Part shown: piece after piece, positions 396-56,818 of the stretch
Layout of the letters: each line of letters begins with the position of its first letter
Position numbering within the stretch: the stretch's first letter is position 1
Origin: Candidatus Rifleibacteriota bacterium
Lineage (GTDB): Bacteria > Muiribacteriota > Ozemobacteria > Ozemobacterales > Ozemobacteraceae
DNA: 64,000 bases
NCBI GenBank assembly: GCA_012517355.1
Contig: JAAYVD010000022.1
Location: 75,011 to 139,010 of the forward strand
Direction of reading: 5' to 3'
Position numbers and translations under genes: made by a program
The notes under the pieces: model-generated
Told to the model about the DNA's origin: nothing
Databases searched by the model: none
What the model saw: only the letters and a program-made list of their open reading frames with translations

Positions 396-2420
396 GTGAT
401 GAAAGGCTTCTTCTCCAACGACCACCCCTACACCGCCTGGGTTTGTACAAGCATTGAAACATTGGTGCCGAGTCCGGTACCCGGGCAAAGGAGGCTGCTC
501 TGGGCTTTCCTGGCAGGGTGGCTTGCCGCCGCCGCGCACCTGCTCACCCGTCCCGCCCGTTTCGTGTCGCTGCGCACCTCGTTCCGGGTCGTCTTTTTCC
601 TGGTCGGGGCCTTCCCCGTGGCCGGCCTCCTGGTCCTGGGCTGGATCCATCTCGATGCCGAGGCGGAACGGGACATCCAGCGCGTCGGTCGGGAAACCCG
701 GGAGTGGATCGGCGACCTCGATTCCAAGTCCGGCCGCGTCATCCCGAACCTGGCGGGGCTGTCCCAGCGGGCGGTCAGCCAGCCGGATTTCCTGCGGCGG
801 ATGGAGGGCTCCGGGCCGGCCAGCCTGCGGGCCGCCGGGGAGTCCCTGCTGGCCTTCTGGGCCCGGCATGGCCTGCCCGCCGTGACCCTGTTCCTGTTCC
901 GCCCGGGGGAGCCAGCGCTCGCCCTGCCGGAACGGGACCCGTTCGGAGAACCGAACCAGTCCCGCCTCGACACCATCGCCCCCCTCGTCCACATGGCCCA
1001 CCATGCCAACCATCCCCCAGGCGGGCCGGTGCCCGCCCCCCTGCTCGAAAAGTCCCAGGAATGGTGGGTGGAGGTCTACACCTCGCTGGGGGCCGACGAT
1101 TCCCGCAACCTCCTGTTCGATTTCGAGGAAACGGGCGATTTTGCCCAGATGGAGGGCGGCACCCGGGCCTTCACCATCTCGCACCAGTTCACCCGCCATG
1201 GCGAGGTGCGAGGCTATCTGATGGTCCAGGCCCTGGTCGACGAGGCCTTCCGGGCCTTCCTCGGCCGCCGGCTGGCCCGCGCCTCCCTCGAGCCTGGCCG
1301 CGCCTGTTTCCTGGGCCGGGTGGAGGCCGGTGGCCAGACCCCCGTCTTCCCGTCCCCCGCGGCGGGGGCCTGGCAGACCCCCACCGGCGCCGCCATGCAG
1401 GGGTTGCTCTCGGCGACCGCCCGGGTCCGGGCCGGACGTTTGGTCCGGACGGCCGATGCCCTGCTGGTGACCGGCCTGTGCGCCCGGTTCGTGCCGTTCG
1501 TGGTCGGGGTGCGGGTCGACCTCGCCCCGATCCTGGCCCGGGCCTGGTGGGGGAAGCTCGGTCTCGCCGCGTTCGGATGCCTGGTGCTGGGCCTGGTCAC
1601 CGCCCTCGGCCACCTCACCGGCCGGTTCCTGATCGATCCGCTGATGCTGGTCGAGCGGGGGTTGCAGCGGGTCGGCGGGGGCGACCTGACGGTGCGGGTC
1701 GGCCTGGACCGGGAGGACGGCCTGGGCGACCTCACCCGGGCGGTCGACCGGATGGTGGTGGGCCTGCAGGAGCGGCGCAACCTGGGCCGGTTCGTCTCGG
1801 GAACCCTGGAAATGGCCCTGCAGGATGGGCAGGCCGGCGTCTTCGATGCGCCGCGCCTGGTCCCCGGCGCGATCCTTGTCTCCGACATCCGTGGCTTCAC
1901 CACCCTGTCCGAGCGGGAACCGCCCCTGGAGGTCGTGGCCATGCTGAACGCCCACCTCGAGGTCATGTCGGACCTCATCGAGGGCCATGGGGGGCGGATC
2001 GACAAGTTCATCGGGGACGCCATCGTGGCCTTCTTCCCGGCCGCCAGCCAGGAAGAGGCCGCCCGCCTGGCCACCCGGGCCGGCCTGGCCATGCGGGCCG
2101 CCCACCGCCGGCTGCAGGATGAACGCCGGCAGGCGGGCCGGTTCCCCTACGAGATCGGCGCGGGCGTCGCCAGCGGGGACTGCCTGGTCGGCATGATGCG
2201 CGGCCAGGACCGGGCCGAATTCACCGTCCTGGGGCCCGAGCGGGCCGAGGCCGAACGCCTGGAAGGCCTTTCCAAGCTGGGCTCCTACACCCGCGTCGTG
2301 GTGTCGCCGGGCGTCTGTCGCGACCTCGGCGGGGAGTTCCGGTGGGCGGCGATCCCCAACCAGCAGGCCTGGGAACTCGTCGGGCCGGCCCTTCCAGGAG
2401 CGGGGGGGGGCGGCGCGTGA
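396..2420 (+). CDS. Membrane-bound HAMP + class III adenylate/guanylate cyclase. The reading frame stays open upstream to position 3 with no in-frame ATG/GTG/TTG, so the gene may begin before the window.
   Basis: Two N-terminal TM helices (LLWAFLAGWLAAAAHLL, VVFFLVGAFPVAGLLVLGWI). HAMP-like segment (LTRAVDRMVVGLQERRNLGRF). Cyclase motifs GFTTLSE and FIGDAIVAFF. No stop codon in this frame between position 3 and 396. Confidence 0.8.
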   Translation: MMKGFFSNDHPYTAWVCTSIETLVPSPVPGQRRLLWAFLAGWLAAAAHLLTRPARFVSLRTSFRVVFFLVGAFPVAGLLVLGWIHLDAEAERDIQRVGRETREWIGDLDSKSGRVIPNLAGLSQRAVSQPDFLRRMEGSGPASLRAAGESLLAFWARHGLPAVTLFLFRPGEPALALPERDPFGEPNQSRLDTIAPLVHMAHHANHPPGGPVPAPLLEKSQEWWVEVYTSLGADDSRNLLFDFEETGDFAQMEGGTRAFTISHQFTRHGEVRGYLMVQALVDEAFRAFLGRRLARASLEPGRACFLGRVEAGGQTPVFPSPAAGAWQTPTGAAMQGLLSATARVRAGRLVRTADALLVTGLCARFVPFVVGVRVDLAPILARAWWGKLGLAAFGCLVLGLVTALGHLTGRFLIDPLMLVERGLQRVGGGDLTVRVGLDREDGLGDLTRAVDRMVVGLQERRNLGRFVSGTLEMALQDGQAGVFDAPRLVPGAILVSDIRGFTTLSEREPPLEVVAMLNAHLEVMSDLIEGHGGRIDKFIGDAIVAFFPAASQEEAARLATRAGLAMRAAHRRLQDERRQAGRFPYEIGAGVASGDCLVGMMRGQDRAEFTVLGPERAEAERLEGLSKLGSYTRVVVSPGVCRDLGGEFRWAAIPNQQAWELVGPALPGAGGGGA

Positions 2421-5644: not shown

Positions 5645-7723
5645 TCAGCCTTCTGGGGGAGCCTTCTCCTCCGGGGCGTCGGCGACGTCTTCCCCGCCTT
5701 CCGACTCTTCTGAGCCCTCTTCGCCGGCGGCCTCGCCTTCCACCTCTTCGGAGCGCCCCTCATCGGCGGCCCCGCCTTCCGCATCGTTGGAGCCCTCTTC
5801 GCCGGCGGCCCCGCCTTCCCCCTCTTCGGAGCCTTCCTCAACGGCGGTTCCGCCTTCCCCTCCTTCGGCGGACTCCTCGGCCGCGGACTCTTCGGAAGCG
5901 TCCTCGTCTTCCCCTGCCTCGGCCCCTTCCACCGGGATTTCCTCGCCCGCTTCCCCCGTTTCCCCTGCCTCTCCCGGCGCGGAGGTATCCCCCCCCTCAC
6001 CCCCGGCGGCGGCCGCGGCAGACCCCGCCTCCCCCTCTGGGCTGCCTTCTGTGGCGGCAGTCCCGGCGTCCGGCACGGGGGCGTCCGGCTGCCGCCGGAT
6101 CTTGGCCAGGATGCCGGTGATGAGCGGCAACAGCTTGCCCTTCAGCGTCTGCAGGGCCGAGGGCTTGGCGGCGGGACCCCCGGCGTCGGCGTCCCCGGCC
6201 GGCGCAGCCGCGGCGGCGGCGGCCAGGCCTTCGCCGCCCGCCACGGGGGCTGCGCCGCCGGCGTTTCCGGCATCTCCGGCGTCTCCGGCCGGCGCCTTCT
6301 TTTTGAGTTTCTTGCGGGCGGCATCCGCACCGGCCGCCAGTCCGCCGAGTCCGAGGAGCAGGAACAGCCAGTTCTTCTTCGCCCACAGGGTGTAATACCG
6401 CATGGCCAGTCCCGGAGGGCCGTTCTTGGCCGTGCGGGCCTTGGCGAGGTGCTGCAGGGCCATGGCCAGATCGGGTTTCTTCGCGTTGGCCAGCGCTTCC
6501 GCCATTCCCCAGTTGCCCCAGGGGTCGTCGGGGGCTTTCTCCAGGAGCTGGCCGGCCTTGTTCTTCACGTCCTGGTAGTTGACCTTCTTGCCGTTCAACT
6601 GGCATTGGATCAACATTCCCAACCCCTCGGGAGTGGCCCCCGCCTCGGGGTTTTCCTGCAGCAGGCTCTGCAGATCGCTCCACTTGTCGTTCTGACGGAG
6701 TTTGCGCGCCTCGACCAGAGCGGCCTGCGCCCCGACCGAAGGCTCGGCCGGGCCGGCCGCCTCCCCCTCCCCGGCCGCCTCCCCATCGCCGGGTGGTGGC
6801 CCGCCTTCGCCTTCACCCGTGGCGGCTTCCCCGGCCGCGGCGGTGGGTGTCGCTGCAGGCACGGTTCCTGGGCCGGCTGCCTCCCCTTCGCCGGCCGGCC
6901 CTCCGGGAGCGGCTTCACCACTGCCTGTGGAGACTGTCCCGGCGGTCTGGGACGCCCCCCCGGGGCCGCTGGTGGCGGCCGGGTCGACGGCCGTCGCACC
7001 GCCGGCGGCATGGTCGGGAGTTCCCGCGACCTTGGTGGCGCTGGCCGCGTCGGTGCGGGTGGTCGCCACCTGCGTGTCGCGGGCGGTCGATGCCGGCCCG
7101 CTGGCGGGCGGGGTGCCGGCCGCGGGCGGCCTGTTACCGGGCGGCCCGGCCACCGCCGTTCCTGAACCCGTCGCTCCGGCCTGCGCCGTGGCCGATGCGG
7201 GGGCCTTGCCGGCGGTTCCCTGGGCTTGTGCCGGGGCCGGGGGTTTGCTCCCGGCCCCGGCCGTCATCGGGGGCGAGGCGGTGCCGGCCGGCCCCGTGGC
7301 CACCCCGGGAAATGGCAAGCGGGCCGGGGCGGATCCGGCCGGCCGGCTCCTGGAAGCGATGGAGCCCGGTTCCAGAGCCTCGGCGGTGGCAGACCCCGGC
7401 CGCGTGAGGCGGAGCCCATTGGTGGCCTCGCCGTGGGCCGCGGCCTGTTTGAGGGAGCCGGTCCCGGTGGGGGCTCTGGCGGGGGTTCTGGTGGGGTGCC
7501 GGCCGGCCGCGGGCGGCGGTTCGACCGGCAGGGGAAGCGGAACGGGATCCTTGGACCGGAGGTCGATGGAGCGGGAGGCGGTTCCCGGGTAGACCACGGT
7601 GGGCGGGGGCAGGTCGCGCAACAGCCGGCGGGGGTCATCCCTTCCCGGAAATCCCCCTTCGGCCGCCGACCAGCCGAGGACCACGATCAGCAGCAGGGCC
7701 GCGACCGTCCGGACTTCCCTCAT
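5645..7723 (-). CDS. Secreted/membrane-anchored hypothetical protein. It has a signal peptide, a Pro/Ala/Thr/Gly-rich region, a TPR-like segment, one TM helix and a poly-acidic C-terminal tail. I placed the start at the ATG whose ATGA overlaps the rnhA stop.
   Basis: [23 protein letters not shown] signal peptide begins exactly at the rnhA stop (ATGA overlap). TM helix [17 protein letters not shown]-terminal E/G/S-rich tail. The listed 986-aa ORF extension over rnhA is in another frame and is spurious. Confidence 0.55.
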
Positions 7724-11200: not shown

Positions 11201-14200
11201 ATCGTGAAAGCCGCCTGCACGGCGGCCTCGTCCATGAGTCGCGAGAAGGGCAGCACCAGTTCCGCGTTGGTGGCGACCCCGGTGGCGCCGTCGGCGGGCC
11301 GCACTCCGGCGGTAAGCACCACCGGCCGACCCAGGGTGCTGAAGCCGATGGTCACCGCCTCGGAGAGGGCGACCCCCCCCTGGTTGCGGGCCCCGGTGCC
11401 GACCGTGATGGTGGCGGGGGTGCCGAACAGCAGCGGCTGGGCGAAGGAGGCGGTCATGGTCTGGCTGTCTGGCCAGGCGAATTGCACCGGGCCGCCGGGC
11501 GCGGGCACCAGGCTGAACGCTGCCTGGACCGAGGCCTGGTCCATCGGCTGGTCGAAGGTCAGGCGGATCGGTAGCAGGGGGTTGGCGGCTGCAGCCCCGG
11601 GCGCCGGCACCGCGGCGATCAGGCGGGGACCGGCCGGGGAAACGGTCTGCAGGGTGAACGATCCCGGAGGGGTCAAAGCCAGGCCGTCCTGGTCACGGGC
11701 CCCCGGCCCTACCGTCCATTCCAGGGTGGTGGCGGGTTCCAGGCCGAGGGGAAAACGCAGGGTCAGGAGGCGGTTCCCGTCCGACCAGGCCAGGGTGGGC
11801 GCCTGCTGCGGCACCGGCCGGAAAAGGGGGATGACGGTGGCCGGCTCCATGGGGGCGGAAAAGGCGATCTCCAGCGGCGTATCGAGGGGAACCCCGGTGG
11901 CACCGGATTCGGGACGCACGGCCGTCACGGTGGGGGCGACCCCGGCGGCGGTGGTGAATCCGGCGGAAAACGCGGCGGCGAGGGCGATACCCTGGGCGTC
12001 CCGGGCTCCGGCTCCGACAAAGACCGAGTAGGCCTGGCCCGGTCGCAGGGGGGAGGCCGGGGCGAAGGACAGGGTGGAACCGCTCCAGGAGACGGTGCCC
12101 GCTTCCGCCAGCCCGCCGCGGAGCAGGGCGAAGGCCTTGGCCGTCGCCGTCTGGTCCATCGTCTTGCTGAAGGGAACGCGGATCACCACCCCGCTGGCCA
12201 CGCCCGTGGCCCCGTCTGGCGGAAACAGGCCCCCCGCCACCACGACCGGGGCCGCCTCGGTCTGGAAGGTGGTGGCGAAATCGCGGCCCAGGGCCACGTT
12301 GCTGGCGTCGGTCACGGTGCTGGCGATGGTGCAGGTGAACGTCGTCCCGGCGGGCAGGAGCGCCCCCGAGGTCACGGTCAGGGTGCTGCCCGCTCCGTCC
12401 CAGGCCAGGAGGGTGCCGCCCGGGGGAGCGGGGGACAGCCGGAGGCCAGCGGTCACCGCGGCCTGGTCCATTGCCCGGTCGAAGACCACCTGCAGGCGCA
12501 GGACGGTGGTGGCGATCACCGTTCCATCGGTAGGCGAGACACGCACGATGCGTGGGTTCAGGACCGCCCCGGTGGTGAACGTGATGGCCCGCGTTCCCGT
12601 CAGAGTCTGCCCCAGCAGGTCGGCGGCGGAGGCCGCCACCGTGGCCTGGTAGGCGGTGGAGGGGGCCAGGGCCACGTTCCAGGCGAGGGTGAGGGTCCGG
12701 CCGTCCGCGCTCCAGGACCGGGTGGGGGTGCCGCCGATCTCGGGAAGGAAGCCCACCTGGACCGTGTTAGTGGCCATGGTCTTGGAAAACCCGAACTGGA
12801 GGGTGGGGAACAGGGGCACGCCGGTGGCCCCGTTGGCGGGGGTGGTCTGCACCAGAGTGGGCGGGGTGGGGTCGGCCGTGGTGAACGTGAATTCCCACGG
12901 GGCGGCGGGATGGTTCCCCAACAGGTCGGCCGTGGCGGTGCCCAGCCGTCCGGTCATCCGGGTGTTGCCCGGCAACGGCTTGGACCAGGAGATCCGGACC
13001 GTACGGTCGTCAGGCCAGGTGAAGGACGCCGTGCCGGCCGGGGGCGGAGAAAGGCTCCAGGCGGCCGGTACCGAGGTTCGCGACACCGGCTCGTCGAAGG
13101 CCAGTTCCACCGTCGTGGCCGGGTCCACGTTGGCCTGGCCGTCGGCCGGCGCCACCCGCACCAGGTTCGGAGGTTCGGTGTCGGCCGTGGTGAACGTGAT
13201 CCGGATCGGCTGGGACAGGGGAATACCCCCGGCGCTTTTCGCGGTCTGGCCCACCGCCAGTTCATAGGTCGCGAAGTTGGCGAGCGGCATGGGCGGGGCG
13301 ACTTCCAGGGTCTGGTTGCCGTCCTTCCAGGTCAGGACGGGCGGGACCGCGCCGGCCGGGGCCAGGCTCAGGGCGCCCTTGACCGAGACCGGATCCATCG
13401 CCTGGGAAAAACGCAGGGTGGGAATGGTGGTGCGGAAGACCCCGGTCTGCCCGTTGGCGGGAACCGCCCCGGTCAGGGTGGGGGCCACCTGCGAGGAGGT
13501 GGTGAAGGCCACCGACCAGGCCGCGCTCAGCCCGTTCCCGTGCAGGTCGGCTGCCGCCGTGGCGAGGAACCACCGGACGGTGGCCAGGGCGGGCCAGGGC
13601 AGGCCCGGGTTGACCCAGGTTTCCGTCCCGCTCGCGTTCCATTGGAAGGTCAAGCTGGTGGCGGGCGGCGAGAAGGCGAGGGACTGCTCGACCGAGGTCC
13701 GGTTCATCGGCTCGCTGAACTGCAGGAACAGGGCGGCGTTGGTCGGCACCCCAAGGCTTCCGGAGGCGGGCAGGAAGGCGGTGATCGTGGGGGCGGTGAG
13801 GTCGGGCAGGGGGAACTGGAACCGTGTTTCCCCCGCCAACGCGATGCCTTCCTTGTCGCGGGCGAAGCCCGAGAAGCTGGCGACCAGGTCGGACGTGGGC
13901 ATCCAGGGCGGATCCCAGGTGATGAGGACCTCGGTGTCCTCGGGGTTCCAGGTGAAGGTGGCCGTCACCGGGGCGACCGGCCAGGTCGAGAAGCCGGCGG
14001 CCACGCTGGCCTTGTCCATCGGCCGGTCGAACTGGAACTTCAGGCTGGCCAGGGGCCCGGTGAGCGGGCTGCCATTGGCCGGCACCGTCCCGATGACCGT
14101 GGGACCGCTCTTGGCGCCGGTGGTGAAGGAGATCTGCCGCGCGGCGACGAGGGCATTCCCCTCGAGATCCCGGCAACCGGTTCCGATCAGGATCTCGTGC

Positions 14201-50208: not shown

Positions 50209-50239
50209 CTACCGGGACCCGTTTGGAAACTACCGTCCG

Positions 50240-50386
50240 GTCAAGGGCTAACGGACCGCGGTGCGGAGCTTCCGCGAGGGGAACGCGTTAGCGTTCCCCT
50301 CGCCACCAGAAAGGGTCCAGGGCCATCGGCCCTGGTGGGGTGAAGGGGCAAAGCCCCTTCGGCAAGCCTTTATGCGGACCATTGTT
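50240..50386 (+). repeat. Copy 1 of a conserved ~150-nt hairpin/palindrome-rich intergenic element (family R1)
   Basis: About 93% identical to the reverse complement of 56370-56526. It contains four perfect palindromes/hairpins: GCGGA-GCU-UCCGC, GAGGGGAACGC-GUUA-GCGUUCCCCUC, CCAGGGCC-AUC-GGCCCUGG and GAAGGGG-CAAAG-CCCCUUC. Confidence 0.8.
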
Positions 50387-50590
50387 GGGAAAAGGGCCAC
50401 CGGCGGTCAAGCTGAGGGTGGGGGGGGAATGGCCGGCACGGTTGGAAGGCGCCTCGGGTGAGGGTGAGAGGATGTGGTGCAAGTCCATCACACTTGCGAT
50501 ACAATGGCGCGGGCGGTTCATCGCCCTCCGGGACCGAAGATGGTCGACCGGGGTACCCCGGGAAAATCGAGGCAGGAAAAGGCAGACGAC

Positions 50591-51281
50591 GATGAAAAGG
50601 AACGTGTGGCTGGGGTTTTTGGTGATGTTGGTTCTGGTGGCCGGGCCGGTATCCGAGGCATGGGCCCAGGCCGAGACCTGGGAGGCCTACGAGATCAATG
50701 CCCAGTACCGCGGCGGGGTCAAGAAAGGGTTCGATGAATTGGGGTGCGGCGTCGGTGGGTACATTTCCCTGCCCGACGGCAACCGCGAGATCGTCTTCCA
50801 TGCCTGCGTCAAGGACCCTGAGAAACGGCAGAAGTTTTACGGCATGCGTCTCCGGATGGTCTACTCCTTCGACGGGAAGGGCCAGGTCAAAACCGTCACC
50901 GAGAAATACGCCTGGTTCGACAATTTCGAAAAGCAGCACCAGGACCAGATCCGCGACATGATCCTGCTGTTGGGCACCATCAAGGACGGGTCTCTTATCC
51001 AGGCGGCTCTCAAGCAGGTGATGATCAATGCCACCACCATCGTGCTCGACGGCAAGACGGGCTCCGGTGGCAAGTCGATGGAGCTCGGCATCCAGCGGCC
51101 AGGGAAGCCGATCCTGGAAGGGAAGTTCTTCCTCAAGAACGCCAGCTCCGCCTGGAACCTGACCAAGTTTCGCATGAAGCGCGGCAAGGTTTCCGTGTCC
51201 TTCGTGACGAATCCGCTGGCCCAGGTCCAGGCCGAATACCAGGCCAAGGAGCCGTTCTCCCGCGTGGTCTTCGGTCGGTGA
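50591..51281 (+). CDS. Secreted hypothetical protein (230 aa)
   Basis: Signal peptide MKRNVWLGFLVMLVLVAGPVSEAWA. Balanced composition. I chose the ATG at 50591; the longer ORF from 50340 runs through the R1 element. Confidence 0.6.
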
Positions 51282-51302
51282 CGGCGGTCCCCCGCGGCAG
51301 GG

Positions 51303-51412
51303 GCCGACCGACCGGATGTCGGAAGGGCTTTCCCCCTGCCGCTGCGGAGGGGGGCGCAAAACGGCAGCTCCGCGCATCGCAAGGGGGCCGACCGCTATGC
51401 TGTCGGCCGTTC
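51303..51412 (+). repeat. Copy A of a second intergenic repeat family (R2)
   Basis: It shares two conserved boxes with 53996-54108: CCGATGTC(G/C)GAAGGGCTT(T)CCCCCT and GCGCATCGCA(A/G)GGGGGCCGACCG. Confidence 0.6.
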
Positions 51413-51509
51413 CCCCCCTGTGACAAGGGGGGAGGCGTGAAACACCCGTTTTGCCCCTCGCCAGGGGGTTCTCCCCTCCCCCCATCCCTTCCTCACGGAT
51501 GACACCCCT

Positions 51510-53837
51510 GTGACCCCGACCCCTGCTCCCCGGCCGGGAGGGGGGGGGGGCGGCGCCCGTCGGGCACTTTTCTCTGGAACCCTGTTCTGGAGTGCTTTTC
51601 TGCTGTTCTCCATCCAGCCGTTGGCTGCCAAAAGGCTGTTGCCGGTGCTCGGCGGCGCGGTCGGCGTGTGGACGGGATGCCAGTTGTTCTTCCAATTGGT
51701 CCTCCTGGCAGGGTACGCGCTCGCCCACCTGGGACTGCGCGGGCTGGGGGCGGCCCGCCACCCCCCCACCCACGCTTTGTTGCTGGCCTTCGGTCTGCTG
51801 TCCGGGCCGTCCCGGCTGGGTCGGCTGGCCGGGCTGGATGCCCACTCCGCCCCGGTCTGGTTCCTCTTCCGCGAGTTGGGCGGGGCGGTGGGGTTCCCGC
51901 TGCTGGTCATGGCCGCCCTGGCTCCCGCCCTGCAGGCCTGGTTCGCCGTCGGAACCAGGCCCGGGGACGGCGATGATCCCTATCCCTTGTACGCCGCCAG
52001 CAATCTTGGCAGTCTGTCGGCGTTGCTGGCCTATCCCCTGCTCATCGAACCGTTCATTCCTCTGACCGCACAAGCCGGTTGGTGGGAAGATGGGTATTTC
52101 CTTCTGGTTCTGCTGGTCGTAGGATGCGCCGTTTCGACGGTCGCCGTGCCTGGGACCGGAGGGGCCGCGACTTCCGGTCAGGTTGCTGCCAGCGAAGGGC
52201 CGGCGAAGCCATTTTCCTCTGTCGGGCGGCCTGCCGGTCCATCCGGCTCCCCAACCATCGCTTCACCCGTCTCCTGGAGCCGCCGGTGCTCCTGGCTCGG
52301 CTGGGCGTTCCTGCCCACCAGCCTGATGCTGGGCATCACCTCCCAGACCACGATGGACATGGCCCCATTCCCTCTCCTGTGGACCCTTCCACTGGCCGTC
52401 TACCTGCTGACCTGGATGATGGCCTTCGCCCGGTCCCCGCGCTGGCGGGCGGGAGCCTGGCTGGACTGGGCCGTTCCCGGCCTCCTGGCCTGGGCGGCGG
52501 TCATCCATGTGTTGTTCGTGGTCTCCCCCGCCTGGCTGGTGGCGGGGTTCTACCTGGCCGTCCTGTTCGTGGCCGGGCTCGAATGTCACGGCCGGCTGTT
52601 CCTCGACCGCCCCGAAACTCAGGAACTGACCGGGTTCTACTTGGTGACCGCGATGGGAGGGGCCTTGGGAGGGATGTTCAACGGGTGGGTGGCGCCCCAG
52701 GTCTTCCGGCGGTTGCACGAGTTGCCGCTGGTGCTCGTGGCGATCGCCCTCGCTTTTTCCGCGGTGCGAACCCGGTCTTCGGGGTCTCTGACCCGGTTCT
52801 GGAAAGCCGCCGCCTTGCCCCTGGCCGTCGGAGGCTGCTTCCTGTGGTTTGGCGGGCTGGAAATGAATGACCAGTTCTGGTTCAAAGCGGCCTGTCTGGC
52901 GTCCGCCGTCGCCCTGGCGGCCCTGGGCGGTCTCCACGGCGTCCTGTTCGGGCCCCTCTTCGCCCTGGCCCTGGCCGGGGGAAGCCTGATCTGTTTCTCC
53001 CGTCCGGGTGTCCTCGCCGAGGCGCGGAGCTTCTTCGGGACCTATCGCATCCAGGCGAGCGCCACCGGCGCCCACCGGTATCTCATGCACGGCAACATCC
53101 ACCACGGCGGCCAGAAGTGGCTGCCTCCCGGGGAGCGAAACCGGCCTTTCTATTACTACATCCGCGAAGGGCCGGTGGGCGAGGTGTTCCGGGAACTGCG
53201 TCGGCGGCGGGGTCGCCGGATCTGCGTGGTGGGGCTCGGGGCGGGAACCCTGGCCTGCTACCTTCGCCCTTGGCAGGAGATGGTCTTTTTGGAGATCGAT
53301 CCCGTCATGGCTCGGCTGGCGGCGGATCCGTCGTTGTTTTCCTTCCTGGCCGATGCCGCGGGGCCCTGCCGCGTGGTCGAGGGGGATGCCCGCGTTTCGC
53401 TTGCCTCACGCGTTCAGGGGCCCTTCGATCTCATCGTCCTGGACGCCTATTCCTCGGACGCCATCCCCCTGCATCTGCTGACCCGGGAAGCCCTGGACGT
53501 CTATCTCTCCCGGCTCGCCCCCGACGGGTGGCTGATGTTCCACGTGTCCCACCGCACCCTCGACCTGGAGCCGGTCGTGGGCAACCTGGCTTTGGCCGCA
53601 GGACTGTCCGGACTCTCGGCCGGTTTCCGACCGGACCAGGCCTCCCAGCGGCTGAAATACGACGATGAGGACACGCCTTTCGTCTTCAGTTCCCATTGGC
53701 TCATCCTTGCCCGCTCTCCCGACCTTCTCGCCCCGTTTCGGGGCAGCCGGCTTTGGAAGTCGATCCGCGTGGCCCCGGGGTCCCCCGTATGGACGGATGA
53801 GATGTCCAGCGTCCTGTCCGCCTACACCTGGGAATGA
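51510..53837 (+). CDS. Fusion protein: N-terminal polytopic (MFS-like) membrane domain plus C-terminal spermidine-synthase-like (class I MTase fold) domain
   Basis: About 12 TM helices. The C-terminal CVVGLGAGTLACYL...FDLIVLDAYSSDAIPLHLLTREAL is a polyamine aminopropyltransferase-like motif. GTG start, with a G11 homopolymer in codons 10-15. Confidence 0.8.
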   Translation: MTPTPAPRPGGGGGGARRALFSGTLFWSAFLLFSIQPLAAKRLLPVLGGAVGVWTGCQLFFQLVLLAGYALAHLGLRGLGAARHPPTHALLLAFGLLSGPSRLGRLAGLDAHSAPVWFLFRELGGAVGFPLLVMAALAPALQAWFAVGTRPGDGDDPYPLYAASNLGSLSALLAYPLLIEPFIPLTAQAGWWEDGYFLLVLLVVGCAVSTVAVPGTGGAATSGQVAASEGPAKPFSSVGRPAGPSGSPTIASPVSWSRRCSWLGWAFLPTSLMLGITSQTTMDMAPFPLLWTLPLAVYLLTWMMAFARSPRWRAGAWLDWAVPGLLAWAAVIHVLFVVSPAWLVAGFYLAVLFVAGLECHGRLFLDRPETQELTGFYLVTAMGGALGGMFNGWVAPQVFRRLHELPLVLVAIALAFSAVRTRSSGSLTRFWKAAALPLAVGGCFLWFGGLEMNDQFWFKAACLASAVALAALGGLHGVLFGPLFALALAGGSLICFSRPGVLAEARSFFGTYRIQASATGAHRYLMHGNIHHGGQKWLPPGERNRPFYYYIREGPVGEVFRELRRRRGRRICVVGLGAGTLACYLRPWQEMVFLEIDPVMARLAADPSLFSFLADAAGPCRVVEGDARVSLASRVQGPFDLIVLDAYSSDAIPLHLLTREALDVYLSRLAPDGWLMFHVSHRTLDLEPVVGNLALAAGLSGLSAGFRPDQASQRLKYDDEDTPFVFSSHWLILARSPDLLAPFRGSRLWKSIRVAPGSPVWTDEMSSVLSAYTWE

Positions 53838-53995
53838 TCCCTGGAATCCGGACGGGGTCAGGGGGAACGGCCCGATCCACACCAGGTGGGAAGTGGGCCG
53901 CAGGCGCCACGGATGGCGCTCCTCCGCAGACCCGACCGGCACGAGGCCGGATGAGCCTGCGGCCATGAATGGGGGCCCACAACGCGAGTTGCCAG

Positions 53996-54108
53996 CCTCG
54001 CCAGGGGGCAGACCGGACCCGATGTCCGAAGGGCTTCCCCCTCGCCGCCAAGGATGACGGGGGGAGACCGTCGCTTCGCGCATCGCAGAGGGGCCGACCG
54101 ACAGTCTG
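53996..54108 (+). repeat. Copy B of intergenic repeat family R2
   Basis: See 51303-51412. It ends about 27 nt before a near-consensus sigma70 -35 box. Confidence 0.6.
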
Positions 54109-54134
54109 GCTGGTCTTCCGGGAAAACCGGTGCT

Positions 54135-54163
54135 TTGACTTGTAGGGGGGTTCCCGGTATCAT
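54135..54163 (+). promoter_or_regulatory. Near-consensus sigma70 promoter for the 54208 gene
   Basis: TTGACT - 17 nt - TATCAT. A GGGGGAG SD lies 7 nt before the GTG start. Confidence 0.5.
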
Positions 54164-54207
54164 TCCCGAGGATTTCTGGGGATCGCTAGAGTTGGGGGAG
54201 CGTTGGC

Positions 54208-55008
54208 GTGCTGAGATTTCTGGTGTTCCTCGGGCCGGTTCTCATGGTGTGCGTGTGTGTGGGAGGCGCTGGGCTTCCCGCGTTCGGGCAGGAGGAGGAA
54301 CCTGCCGTCTCCGACCCTCTCGGAGATCTTGAAAACCGGTTCTTCGAGGCTTTGGCCGGAGGGCAGGCGGGACAGGCGGAAGAGCTTTTGCGGGCCGCGC
54401 TGGCCGATGGCCGGTTGACCGGCAAGGACCCCCTCGAAGCCAACCTCCTGGTGGCCCTGGGCAACCATTTCTGTGAAGCGGGGAGCGTGGGCTCGGCCTG
54501 TTTCTGGCTGGAAGGGGCGGTGACGAGGTATGGCTCCCTCCCGATGGATGATGCCGGTGAGCAGACCTATGCCAGCGCCCTCGGGGCCAAGATCGCCTGG
54601 CTGAAAAGCGGTGGGGTCAGATCCTGGGTCGAGAAGGAGCCCGCCGTTCTGGCCCGAAAACTCTTCCAGGCCCTTTCCCGTGCCGACCGTGCGACCCTCG
54701 AAGGCTCCCTGGCCCTGTTCGACATCTACCTGGGGTGGTGGCAGAGCGAGCTTGAACCTGTCACCCGGGAGGAACTCCTCGCCTTCCTCGAATCCCACCG
54801 GGGAGGCACCCTCACGTGGGCCAACGAGCCCGAGGTCATCGCGCAAAGCCCCAAGGGCGACACTGTCATTTACATGAACATTCGTGGGTGGAAGGACATT
54901 GAGGGGTATTCGAACATCCAGTTTGCCATCCACCCCGTCGCCGCGGGAGGTTGGGAGTGGCGTGGCATCGTTCTTGGCGAAGACCAGACCGCTTCATCCA
55001 CTCCCTGA
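54208..55008 (+). CDS. Secreted hypothetical protein (266 aa)
   Basis: Signal peptide MLRFLVFLGPVLMVCVCVGGAGLPAFG. Helical, balanced composition. Confidence 0.6.
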   Translation: MLRFLVFLGPVLMVCVCVGGAGLPAFGQEEEPAVSDPLGDLENRFFEALAGGQAGQAEELLRAALADGRLTGKDPLEANLLVALGNHFCEAGSVGSACFWLEGAVTRYGSLPMDDAGEQTYASALGAKIAWLKSGGVRSWVEKEPAVLARKLFQALSRADRATLEGSLALFDIYLGWWQSELEPVTREELLAFLESHRGGTLTWANEPEVIAQSPKGDTVIYMNIRGWKDIEGYSNIQFAIHPVAAGGWEWRGIVLGEDQTASSTP

Positions 55009-55261
55009 AACTGGTCTCACGAGTGGCAACCCACCATAGATCCGTCCCGCCAGGTGGGTTTGTCCATTGGAGGGGATGATTTGAGCCAAGCCCAAAGAAC
55101 TGCCCGCCTCTTCCAACTCACGAACACCGATCCGATGACGAGTCCCTTCGATCGGGATCGGGATGTCCCCCATCCGGGGCCCCTCCGCCCCTCCCCGGCC
55201 ATGGTCTGACGAAGCTTTCTTCGGGTTCACAAGCCAGATGTTCACAAGCCAGAGAAACTGA

Positions 55262-55292
55262 ACCCCGCCCGTGATCGCACGGGCGGGGTTCT
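55262..55292. terminator. GC-rich hairpin, a likely bidirectional terminator between two convergent genes
   Basis: CCCCGCCCGUGAUCGCACGGGCGGGG, with UUCUG on the + side and UUCAGUUUCUCU on the minus side. Confidence 0.5.
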
Positions 55293-55317
55293 GCGGAATC
55301 CGGGTCCTGATTCCCGG

Positions 55318-56271
55318 TCAGAACTGCAGGTTGTCCTCCCTGGTCCAGCCTTCTTTGCGGCCCTGATGGTAGGTGATTTCGAACCATTGGTATTTGCCGA
55401 TGCGCTTGCAGCTTTTGATCTTCACCACCACACCTTTGGGGACCTTGCCCAGGAGAGCGGCCTTGGTGCTGGGGGCATTTCTGACCTTGGCGCCTGAATC
55501 GGCGACGACGGTGCCCTCTGCGGGCAGTTTGTCGGCGGAGGCGAATCCCTTCACGGTTTCGGCCGGAGGAGCGGGTTTCGCGACGGCCACGCTGACCGTC
55601 TGCGCCAGGGCCATGGCCTTCAGAGCGGCGGGATCGACGGGAACGGGCTTGCGGGTCGTGGGGTCGATGATCACCCGTGTCGTACCGCTCCCACTCTCAG
55701 GCGGAATGCCGGTAAGGGTGTCCTTCGGTCCGACGATCAGCAGGTCGTCCCTGGTCCAACCTACCTTCTTGTTGAAATCCCATTTTACCTGGGTCCAGCC
55801 GTTCTTACGGTCGATGACGTGACCCCGTGTGCCGTTGCCAATCTTCATGACCATCTTGCCTGAGACGTCCGGGATCTCACGGACGTTGATCCCGTTCCCA
55901 TTGGCGAAGGCGACCAGCTTGACATGCGGGTCGGGGGAGGGGGAACCGGCCTTGGCGGGCGGGGGGGCCGGTGGGACTGGTGTGGCGGCTGCAGAGGGAC
56001 CCGGTGATGACTCCGGGGTGGACGGAGCAGGCGAAGGGACGGGATTCGGTGCCCCGGACGGGGTGGCTGTGTAGAGGACCTGCGTCGCACCCTGGGAAGG
56101 GGCTGCCTCGGCGGTGGCAAGAACCCCTCCAGAAGGGGCGATGGCACCTGCTGGCGCGGGAAGACCACTGCGCGACTCGAGGTAGGTGAACATCTGTTTT
56201 CCCATGAAGATCCCTACGGCGACGACCGAAACCACGATCACCAATACGGAGAACACTTTGATCTTCTTCAA
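55318..56271 (-). CDS. Signal-anchored protein with two bacterial SH3 (SH3b) domains and Pro/Ala/Ser-rich linkers
   Basis: TTG start with AGGAG SD. TM anchor VFSVLVIVVSVVAVGIF. Two SH3b-like modules (NVREIPDVSGKMVMKIGNGTRGHVIDRKNGWTQVKW and KVRNAPSTKAALLGKVPKGVVVKIKSCKRIGKYQWFEITY). Confidence 0.7.
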   Translation of the reverse strand: MKKIKVFSVLVIVVSVVAVGIFMGKQMFTYLESRSGLPAPAGAIAPSGGVLATAEAAPSQGATQVLYTATPSGAPNPVPSPAPSTPESSPGPSAAATPVPPAPPPAKAGSPSPDPHVKLVAFANGNGINVREIPDVSGKMVMKIGNGTRGHVIDRKNGWTQVKWDFNKKVGWTRDDLLIVGPKDTLTGIPPESGSGTTRVIIDPTTRKPVPVDPAALKAMALAQTVSVAVAKPAPPAETVKGFASADKLPAEGTVVADSGAKVRNAPSTKAALLGKVPKGVVVKIKSCKRIGKYQWFEITYHQGRKEGWTREDNLQF

Positions 56272-56300
56272 CTCGGTGCTCCTATGAAAAGCTCCCGATC

Positions 56301-56329
56301 ATCATAGTACCGCCGGGAACCAGTGTCAA
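56301..56329 (-). promoter_or_regulatory. Near-consensus sigma70 promoter for the SH3b gene
   Basis: On the minus strand TTGACA - 17 nt - TATGAT, about 30 nt upstream of the TTG start. A T8 tract lies just upstream (UP-element-like). Confidence 0.55.
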
Positions 56330-56369
56330 TACCTTGGCTTTCGGCAGGGCACCGAATACTGGAAAAAAA

Positions 56370-56526
56370 ACAATGATTCGCAAAAAGGCTTGCCGAAGGG
56401 GGCTTTGCCCCTTCACCCCACCAGGGCCGATGGCCCTGGACCCTTTCTGCTGGCGAGGTGAACGCTGACGCGTTCCCCTCGCGGAAGCTCCGCTTCGCGG
56501 TCCGTTAACCCTGGACCGGATGGTAG
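56370..56526 (-). repeat. Copy 2 of the conserved hairpin/palindrome-rich element R1, on the minus strand
   Basis: Its reverse complement aligns to 50240-50386 with about 11 mismatches in 147 nt. It lies between the Flp-pilin terminator and the SH3b gene promoter. Confidence 0.8.
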
Positions 56527-56553
56527 AAAAAAACAACCCCGGAAGGGGTTGTT
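56526..56553 (-). terminator. Rho-independent terminator after the Flp pilin gene. It is symmetric with A/T tracts on both sides, so it is probably bidirectional.
   Basis: AAAAAAA-CAACCCCGGAAGGGGUUG-UUUUU. Confidence 0.65.
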
Positions 56554-56581: not shown

Positions 56582-56818
56582 TCATGGACTCGTGCTGTCC
56601 CCGGTCGACCCACCGGTCGAACCACCCGTGGACCCACCGGAATCTCCTCCACCCAGAACCGTTTTCAGGGTTTCGGAAATGGGGCCCCAGAACATTCCGG
56701 AGATGACGTCACCCATGGCCATCATGGCCACCAAAGCGACCATGGCAACCAGTCCAATCAATAGAGCGTATTCTACCAAACCTTGTCCTCTCCTTGACCT
56801 ACACCGCCGCATGCTCAT
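56582..56818 (-). CDS. flp: Flp/Fap-family type IVb pilin
   Basis: RGQGLVEYALLIGLVAMVALVAMMAMG is the Flp motif (G/xxxxEY, hydrophobic stretch). 78 aa. GGAGG SD. A C-terminal GGSTGGSTGGSTG repeat. Confidence 0.85.
   Translation of the reverse strand: MSMRRCRSRRGQGLVEYALLIGLVAMVALVAMMAMGDVISGMFWGPISETLKTVLGGGDSGGSTGGSTGGSTGDSTSP

Follow-up and report, generated by a model that had tools for sequence, protein, structure and literature searches.

The 64-kb stretch of the Candidatus Rifleibacteriota contig JAAYVD010000022.1 analyzed here (the window), which lies within a 173-kb metagenome contig of the European Nucleotide Archive (ENA; ERZ928041), carries two inverted copies of a hairpin-rich sequence of about 155 nt. 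We estimate a probability of about three in four that each copy is an insertion of a non-coding, non-autonomous mobile repeat that spreads within Candidatus Ozemobacteraceae genomes and is of the kind known as miniature inverted-repeat transposable elements (MITEs) or repetitive extragenic palindromes (REPs) and REP doublets forming hairpins (REPINs). This reading rests on empty orthologous sites in relatives, on 8-bp direct repeats that flank the copies, and on copies at unrelated loci in sister metagenome-assembled genomes (MAGs).

An inverted-repeat search, pairwise alignments, and a family alignment place copy 1 at 50230-50384 (+; 155 nt, termini 5'-CTACC...CATTG-3') and copy 2 at 56371-56526 (-; 156 nt). 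When 50230-50382 is aligned globally to the reverse-complemented 56373-56526, 142 of 154 columns are identical (92%), and the likeness breaks off sharply at either side. The inverted-repeat search, which recovered the pair independently of the initial annotation, returned arms at 50230-50357/56399-56526 (128 nt, 94% complementary) with a continuation at 50345-50386/56369-56410, and a family profile matched copy 1 at 50233-50384 (nhmmer, E = 1.5e-40) and copy 2 at 56524-56371 (E = 5.7e-40). A 45-mer taken from the center of the element has exactly two occurrences in the window, where 100 shuffles give an expectation of zero. A search of the window for the single module GGGTNNAGGG...CCCT returned four matches, all of them modules of the two copies, and 10 kb added to the source contig contained no further copy. 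The two inverted, hairpin-rich copies described in the initial annotation are thus real, with boundaries refined as above.

Copy 1 contains perfect stems of 5, 13, 8, and 8 bp, along with a 5-bp pairing GTCCG...CGGAC near its 5' end. The short hairpin GCGGA-GCT-TCCGC (50263-50275, +) is followed by the long hairpin GCGAGGGGAACGC-GTTA-GCGTTCCCCTCGC (50274-50303, +) and by a 56-nt core (50308-50363, +). This core consists of GGGT and the hairpin CCAGGGCC-ATC-GGCCCTGG (50317-50335), and then of T-GGGGT and the 8-bp hairpin GAAGGGGC-AAA-GCCCCTTC (50342-50360, +). The earlier count of four perfect stems per copy holds for the 5-bp stem and one 8-bp stem; the long stem has 13 rather than 11 bp, the last stem 8 rather than 7 bp, and the long stem of copy 2 contains one mismatch.

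To place the copies in a chromosomal context, we compared the window with relatives of known HflX identity (94% for locus L062, 77% for L063, 65% for L064-66, and 63% for L067/68); HflX homologues place the source organism in Candidatus Ozemobacteraceae, Riflebacteria. Loci L062, L064-66, and L067/68 have in common the gene order tricorn, PrsW, hflX, a secreted protein of 229 aa, two proteins of ~780 and ~263 aa, SH3 and a Flp-like pilin of 78 aa (both minus), a protein of 296 aa, and DUF362, with two small pilin-like genes between hflX and the 229-aa gene in some relatives. By blastn, the window aligns collinearly with L062 at nucleotide identities of 77-88%, so that the two copies, at 92%, are more alike than the surrounding orthologous DNA of window and sister species. 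Despite the same gene order, a covariance model of the core found no match in L062-L068.

The sites themselves are empty in the closest relatives. At the position of copy 2, L062 reads ...AACCCCTTCGGGGGTTGTTTTTTTCT|CCCTGGGTCGGTGCCC...GGTATTGACA without an insert, that is, the junction terminator-TTTTTTTCT|CCCTGGGTCGGTGCCC...TTGACA stands where the window has 156 additional nucleotides; the window has the same terminator, the 156-nt element, and then ...AGTATTCGGTGCCC...GGTATTGACA. The blastn blocks overlap by 15 nt at this single target in L062, which means that the target is present twice in the window. At the position of copy 1, L063 reads TGACTACCGTATTTGAAAC, with one TTTGAAA, whereas the window reads TGACTACCGGGACCCGTTTGGAAA, the element, and TTGGGAAAAGG. 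With L062 and L063 providing empty sites and L064-L068 lacking a copy, the element shows the insertion polymorphism typical of MITEs. An independent assembly of the same sequencing run (Logan contig ERR1876141_13364, L002) stops within copy 2, having covered ~48 nt of it (to ~56478) and 104 nt beyond the stop codon of flp, which is the behavior expected of repeated sequence in a de Bruijn graph.

The direct repeats were read from the sequence. Copy 1 is flanked by TTTGGAAA on the left (50222-50229) and TTGGGAAA on the right (50385-50392), which match at 7 of 8 positions. Copy 2 is preceded on the minus strand by GTTTTTTT (56527-56534), which is the T-tract of the flp terminator, and followed by TTTTTTTT (56363-56370), again a 7/8 match. 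The 8-nt flanks of a third copy (L031), CTTTTGTG/CTTTTTTG, likewise match at 7 of 8 positions, and those of three older copies (L022, L033, and L054) at 5 of 8. Target-site duplications of a fixed length of 8 bp are in keeping with MITEs. IS200/IS605-type chemistry, in contrast, inserts without a target-site duplication. The duplications would point to staggered-cut integration of the DDE type. The termini, 5'-CWACSRTCCG and CGGAYCATTG-3', form imperfect inverted repeats (7/11) and change in concert, being GTCCG/CGGAC in copy 1, ATCCG/CGAAT in copy 2, and GATCCG/CGGATC in L022. Both copies in the window are recent insertions into A/T-rich intergenic targets 3' of genes, the target of copy 2 being the flp terminator T-tract.

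At the copy 1 site, we also noted a deletion. In L062 (7078-8020), and likewise in L067/68, hflX is separated from the 229-aa gene by two small minus-strand genes, whose products are a protein of 124 aa and an N_methyl/pilin-like protein of 190 aa. About 890 nt of L062 are replaced in the window (50210-50440) by 178 nt holding copy 1. Of the 190-aa pilin-like gene, which is intact in L062, the window retains a 5'-end remnant at 50388-~50440, adjoining copy 1, and copy 1 therefore sits exactly at the deletion junction.

We considered whether a composite transposon or invertible cassette of 6.3 kb, carrying the secreted-protein, 775-aa, 266-aa, and SH3 genes, could instead have the two copies as its terminal inverted repeats. 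The copies are indeed inverted and bracket these four genes, and 155-bp repeats of 92% identity could support recombination. However, the same four genes, in the same order and orientation, lie between hflX and flp in the repeat-free loci L062, L064-66, and L067/68, which identifies the 6 kb between the copies as ancestral chromosome rather than a repeat-bounded cassette. Each copy moreover has its own flanking 8-bp repeat, and there is no GC discontinuity. Synteny with repeat-free relatives led us to reject this barely credible explanation, and the data support the earlier suggestion that the element was duplicated on its own.

Relatives of the element were retrieved from genomes with an exact 20-mer of the core, and two more (L054 and L060) from metagenomes with a second pattern that combined the long hairpin and the core; that metagenome scan returned 10 loci, of which only these two are real, the others being chance matches in coding DNA. 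Full-length members occur in the sister MAG CAZKPI01, with at least four copies (L015, L022, L024, and L026), in the Ozemobacteraceae MAG CALLCO01 (L031 and L033), and on the two metagenome contigs. They align over their entire length and, in the sister MAGs, sit at unrelated intergenic sites. From 5' to 3', they comprise the terminus CWACSRTCCG, the segment ACCGCG, a short hairpin GCGG-loop-CCGC, a long hairpin nnGGGAACGC-loop-GCGTTCCCnn, the segment GCCAG-AAAAA, the core, and a tail GGCnnGCCTTnAAGCGGAYCA(TTG). The GGGAACGC/GCGTTCCC part of the long hairpin is kept across the Riflebacteria family, and its four basal pairs covary. A search of a plasmid database with the full element returned nothing, and a 19-mer search of viral contigs gave zero matches, so that a phage link is not indicated.

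Two variants of the family stand apart. In the activated-sludge contig UOWG01066087 (L060, 205-317), an extra hairpin region of ~60 nt interrupts the core junction (GGTGG^GGGTGAA), and both core hairpins are kept. The sister MAG CAZKPI01 also holds a second, diverged subfamily with the second hairpin GGGAGGAGC-GGA-GCTCCTCCC, at 797-852 (-) and 1041-1103 (+) of L015 and at 6268-6330 (+) of L022; in L015, a member of this subfamily is arranged head-to-head with a normal copy ~190 nt away, as a REPIN-like doublet.

Genomic context separates the element from the genes that follow it. Downstream of copy 1 lies a gene for a signal-peptide protein (start 50591) and downstream of copy 2 a gene for an SH3_3-domain protein (start 56271), and the initial annotation stressed this position upstream of secreted-protein genes, with a multi-operator enhancer among its proposals. 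An operator array or enhancer acting at the DNA level would be in keeping with the several perfect palindromes, with both copies pointing to the next gene, and with the end of copy 2 only 40 nt upstream of a strong promoter. As had been noted, copy 2 begins right behind the flp terminator T-tract and ends ~40 nt before TTGACA-17-TATGAT, the sigma70-like promoter of the SH3 gene (56329-56301, -). This promoter, like that of the other downstream gene, lies outside the element, and both are conserved in L062, which has the same genes without the element. The stems covary rather than keep a fixed half-site sequence. Of the nine copies of full length, four are in convergent intergenic regions, which leave no gene to be regulated from upstream; two, those of the window, lie between tandem genes in the sense orientation, one is antisense between tandem genes, and the remaining two have a divergent or unknown context. 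Across these nine copies, neither secreted-protein genes nor 5' regions are associated with the element. A DNA-level regulatory function is accordingly very improbable, and a link to secreted-protein genes is not supported: the element is neither a 5' regulatory RNA nor a control region for the secreted-protein, SH3, or Flp genes. For the annotation of the window, a false regulatory lead is removed, and what remains is a recent insertion that is usable as a strain or species marker and explains assembly breaks.

The core is under stronger constraint than the rest of the element, and its hairpins are maintained by compensatory change. All 11 substitutions between copy 1 and copy 2 fall outside the 56-nt core (p ~0.007 by our own calculation). 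A covariance model of the core (R1), built from 19 sequences, has exactly two matches in the window, at 80.2 bits (copy 1) and 73 bits (copy 2; 56393-56448, -), and 84 matches at E <= 1e-5 across the loci. The initial annotation had suggested such a model and a test for compensatory changes, and these are now seen: in 64 distinct sequences, 94% of the cells are paired and 11 of the 16 core pairs have changed on both sides, values that none of 500 shuffles reached and that compare with 34-65% paired in slid controls. The repeating unit can be written GGGT or GGGGT + NNAGGG(G)-loop-(C)CCCTNN, with a near-invariant tag and two basal pairs that vary freely (CC/GG, GC/GC, CA/TG, GA/TC, AC/GT, and CG/CG). 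In the inner stems, there are about eight G.T wobbles against one or two A.C mismatches once indel artefacts are discounted, an excess that mildly favors folding of the GGGT strand; over all pairs, the same comparison is confounded by alignment artefacts at the stem ends.

Covariation of this kind could also mark a functional structured RNA kept by the host, either a trans-acting small RNA (sRNA) or a cis-acting 3' untranslated region or processing element, in which the core would serve as an RNA domain that binds a protein or ligand, mobility being incidental. Besides the strong covariation in both core hairpins and the long hairpin, several features fit such an RNA: near-invariance of junction and tags across phyla, tolerance of a variable-length junction insertion in L060, the preference for G.U over A.C, and stable orthologous retention in three Polyangium species and, at an oadB-like/oadA-like site, in several Clostridia MAGs. 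Copy 1 folds with -93.8 kcal/mol on the plus strand (z = -5.3 against dinucleotide shuffles); however, the opposite strand folds about equally well (z = -6.5). The closest relatives lack the element at the same loci with genes and promoters unchanged, no gene association is consistent, no terminator-like U-tract is conserved in the family, and the module behaves as a high-copy, assembly-breaking sequence in a Rhodovastum MAG. Copy 2, which adjoins the terminator directly, also has no promoter within it or ahead of it, and this makes the independent sRNA gene of the initial annotation unlikely. We regard a host-maintained RNA as improbable.

The annotation's statement that the element matches no known riboswitch was borne out. 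Rfam 15 gave zero matches at gathering thresholds in the window and in 15 related loci, and a permissive scan of copy 1 (E < 10) gave nothing meaningful, the best matches, RNaseP-T (E = 0.46) and Pab19 (E = 5.7), being at chance level. Like structured RNAs in Rfam (GEMM, cobalamin, RNase P-like), the element has covarying helices, conserved unpaired G-rich junctions, and a broad phylogenetic spread; unlike them, it lacks a conserved gene association, an expression platform, a promoter, and a terminator. In addition to the hairpins, RNAalifold predicted that the conserved ACCGCG segment pairs over a long range with UGGGGU at the core junction (columns 36-41/118-123 of alignment A4; 50255-50260/50336-50341 in the window). 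Three hairpins would then lie within a multiloop; the two pairing segments are near-invariant, and covariation thus speaks neither for nor against it.

The core module reaches well beyond Riflebacteria. Often as the same 50-nt sequence, it occurs among the intergenic repeats of at least five bacterial phyla. In a MAG of the alphaproteobacterium Rhodovastum atsumiense (JBBCJT01), at least ~29 loci carry it among the matches listed, many of them within 100 nt of contig ends. Several of these are palindromic doublets of ~290 nt, composed of the same modules and a central 85-nt palindrome (L005, L006, L007, L014, L023, L034, L035, L039, and L051), which fill whole convergent intergenic regions with a stop codon (TAG/TGA/TAA) 3-8 nt outside each end in almost every copy. 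Clostridia MAGs have several copies each, including one orthologous site between oadB-like and oadA-like genes, and three cultured Polyangium species have one orthologous convergent site. A plasmid database searched with the alphaproteobacterial form gave only weak matches, which the covariance model confirmed in Azospirillum megaplasmids and in Streptomyces: a single core on an Azospirillum brasilense megaplasmid (L069, 2000-2063), and four tandem GGGT-hairpin modules on the Streptomyces sp. NBC_01298 plasmid NZ_CP108415 (L070, 1914-2055), in an unannotated intergenic region upstream of genes for a hypothetical protein and a UvrD-helicase-domain protein. The module thereby extends to Actinomycetota and to cultured strains. 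Most matches outside Riflebacteria were found with the exact 20-mer, and independent evidence therefore comes only from the tag, from the partners in the hairpins, and from genomic context; how far the module really varies is shown by the diverged partner copies that the covariance model detected.

These data allow a comparison with established kinds of repeat. REPs are defined as a tetranucleotide 0-2 nt 5' of a stem of 7-20 bp with a loop of 2-5 nt (PMC6006769; PMC3733652). They lie between unidirectional or convergent open reading frames (ORFs), close to stop codons (PMC3733652), form head-to-head dimers, and are present in eight phyla (PMC3733652; PMC6006769). The core resembles REPs, REPINs, and bacterial interspersed mosaic elements (BIMEs) in that an unpaired tetranucleotide stands directly 5' of a GC-rich stem, twice 8 bp with a 3-nt loop; in that units occur in tandem and, in other genomes carrying the module, as head-to-head doublets; and in that it is repeated, breaks assemblies, and is extragenic, located closely 3' of genes or where ORFs converge or run in one direction. 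Its copies number two in ~74 kb here, at least four in the sister MAG, and at least ~30 in the Rhodovastum MAG. The differences are that the tag is GGGT/GGGGT rather than GT[AG]G or the CGTC of the second super-family, that in Riflebacteria the element is a composite of 155 nt to which three further hairpins and termini of its own belong, and that it has apparent 8-bp target duplications and a core common to several phyla. Only GT[AG]G/GTGG and an atypical CnGA foot are given as REP guides in PMC6006769, and PMC3733652 contains no GGGT-tagged family, its single 'gggt' match being an unrelated palindrome. A full-text literature search with core sequence strings returned no relevant paper.

Under a strict REP/REPIN explanation, GGGT and GGGGT would be guide tetranucleotides, the hairpins would be recognized as single-stranded DNA by an HUH tyrosine transposase resembling REP-associated tyrosine transposases (RAYTs), and the flanking 8-mers would be coincidental or part of the element. 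The tag, 8-bp stem, and 3-nt loop fit the published definition (PMC6006769; PMC3733652), head-to-head doublets lie 130-300 nt apart in the Rhodovastum MAG, Clostridia, and L015, and the wobble asymmetry favors one folding strand. Rhodovastum copies also fit, as they occupy convergent intergenic regions to within 3-8 nt of stop codons and have no target duplication. Nevertheless, the tag is neither GT[AG]G nor CGTC, the 7/8 direct repeats abut the termini in three copies and are not made by IS200/IS605-type chemistry, the core is common to several phyla whereas REPs are species-specific in sequence (PMC6006769), and no RAYT was seen in a weak tblastn test of ~0.5 Mb. We consider the strict form of the explanation unlikely.

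Comparable bacterial MITEs include Correia/CREE of Neisseria, ERIC/IRU, RUP and BOX of Streptococcus pneumoniae, and Nezha. Like MITEs, the element falls in the range of ~100-300 nt, is non-coding and intergenic, is polymorphic between close relatives, has flanking target duplications and partly inverted termini, and would be highly structured if transcribed; BOX and BIME are likewise modular. Unlike MITEs, it has poor terminal inverted repeats (7/11), its best conserved part is internal, and the window contains no insertion sequence with its ends. To our knowledge, a typical MITE family does not extend past one genus or species. The fits to REPs and to MITEs are each incomplete, and we therefore file the element under the REP/MITE kind and in neither defined family. 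The initial annotation's option of a REP-like repeat was essentially right, and the simple REP/MITE that it named as a refuting outcome is largely what the data show.

Several observations weigh against a mobile repeat that inserts with target duplication. The weak terminal inverted repeats are less conserved than the interior, the reverse of what is expected for a DDE-mobilized MITE. L031 also ends in CATTGCTTTTTT, and the T-run 'duplication' at copy 2 could thus be partly the element's own. Rhodovastum doublets show no target duplication, and their short flanks look inverted rather than direct. We found no autonomous partner or transposase with matching ends, and counts of the terminal motifs elsewhere in the window are at chance level; tblastn of ~0.5 Mb detected no RAYT-like ORF, in a weak test with an Escherichia coli RAYT probe. 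Only two copies occur in ~74 kb of source contig. Finally, the conservation of the core is inflated by ascertainment, since most family members were fetched with an exact 20-mer of it.

If each copy is nonetheless a mobile repeat, an enzyme encoded elsewhere would move it in trans. The part required in cis would probably be the internal core, with its two modules of tetranucleotide tag, 8-bp hairpin, and 3-nt loop (GGGT-hairpin and GGGGT-hairpin), which is kept constant amid drift elsewhere in the element. Wobble asymmetry suggests that the G-rich strand may be the one on which the core folds, be it as RNA or as single-stranded DNA. The GC-rich hairpin stack lies directly 3' of hflX and flp; read-through would co-transcribe it, and it may have a secondary REP-like action on these transcripts as a barrier to 3' exonucleases or as a weak terminator.

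The element is thus an ordinary kind of object, yet possibly an undescribed and very widespread variant of it. As a tentative proposal, which we would not yet call probable, the core may belong to a previously undescribed pan-bacterial super-family of GGGT-tagged hairpins, a third class beside the GTAG and CGTC REPs. In that case, the unit GGGT-NNAGGGG-loop-CCCCTNN would be near-identical in Rifleibacteriota, Alphaproteobacteria, Myxococcota, Clostridia, and Actinomycetota, likely because it is the cis-site of a widely distributed enzyme or host factor. This partner could be an HUH/RAYT-like nuclease, an integrase making 8-bp duplications, or an RNA-binding or termination factor, and the Riflebacteria element would be a composite mobile vehicle built around the module. 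As far as we know, REP-type repeats are regarded as lineage-specific, and for many of them, those of the CGTC class, no mobilizing enzyme is known. With its filled and empty sites and apparent 8-bp duplications, the family offers a tractable handle for finding the protein that recognizes tagged hairpins.

Two further observations concern the neighborhood of the copies. The 78-aa Flp-like pilin (56582-56818, - in the window; 13679-13915, - in L062) has an unusual Gly/Ser/Thr-rich C-terminal tail (GGGDSGGSTGGSTGGSTGDSTSP) that is conserved in kind in L062, and an ordinary 57-aa Flp_Fap gene lies ~2 kb away. Inside the 6-kb segment between the copies, a 104-nt direct repeat of 71% identity occurs at 51310-51413 and 54016-54119, which could reflect chance or a shared protein motif.

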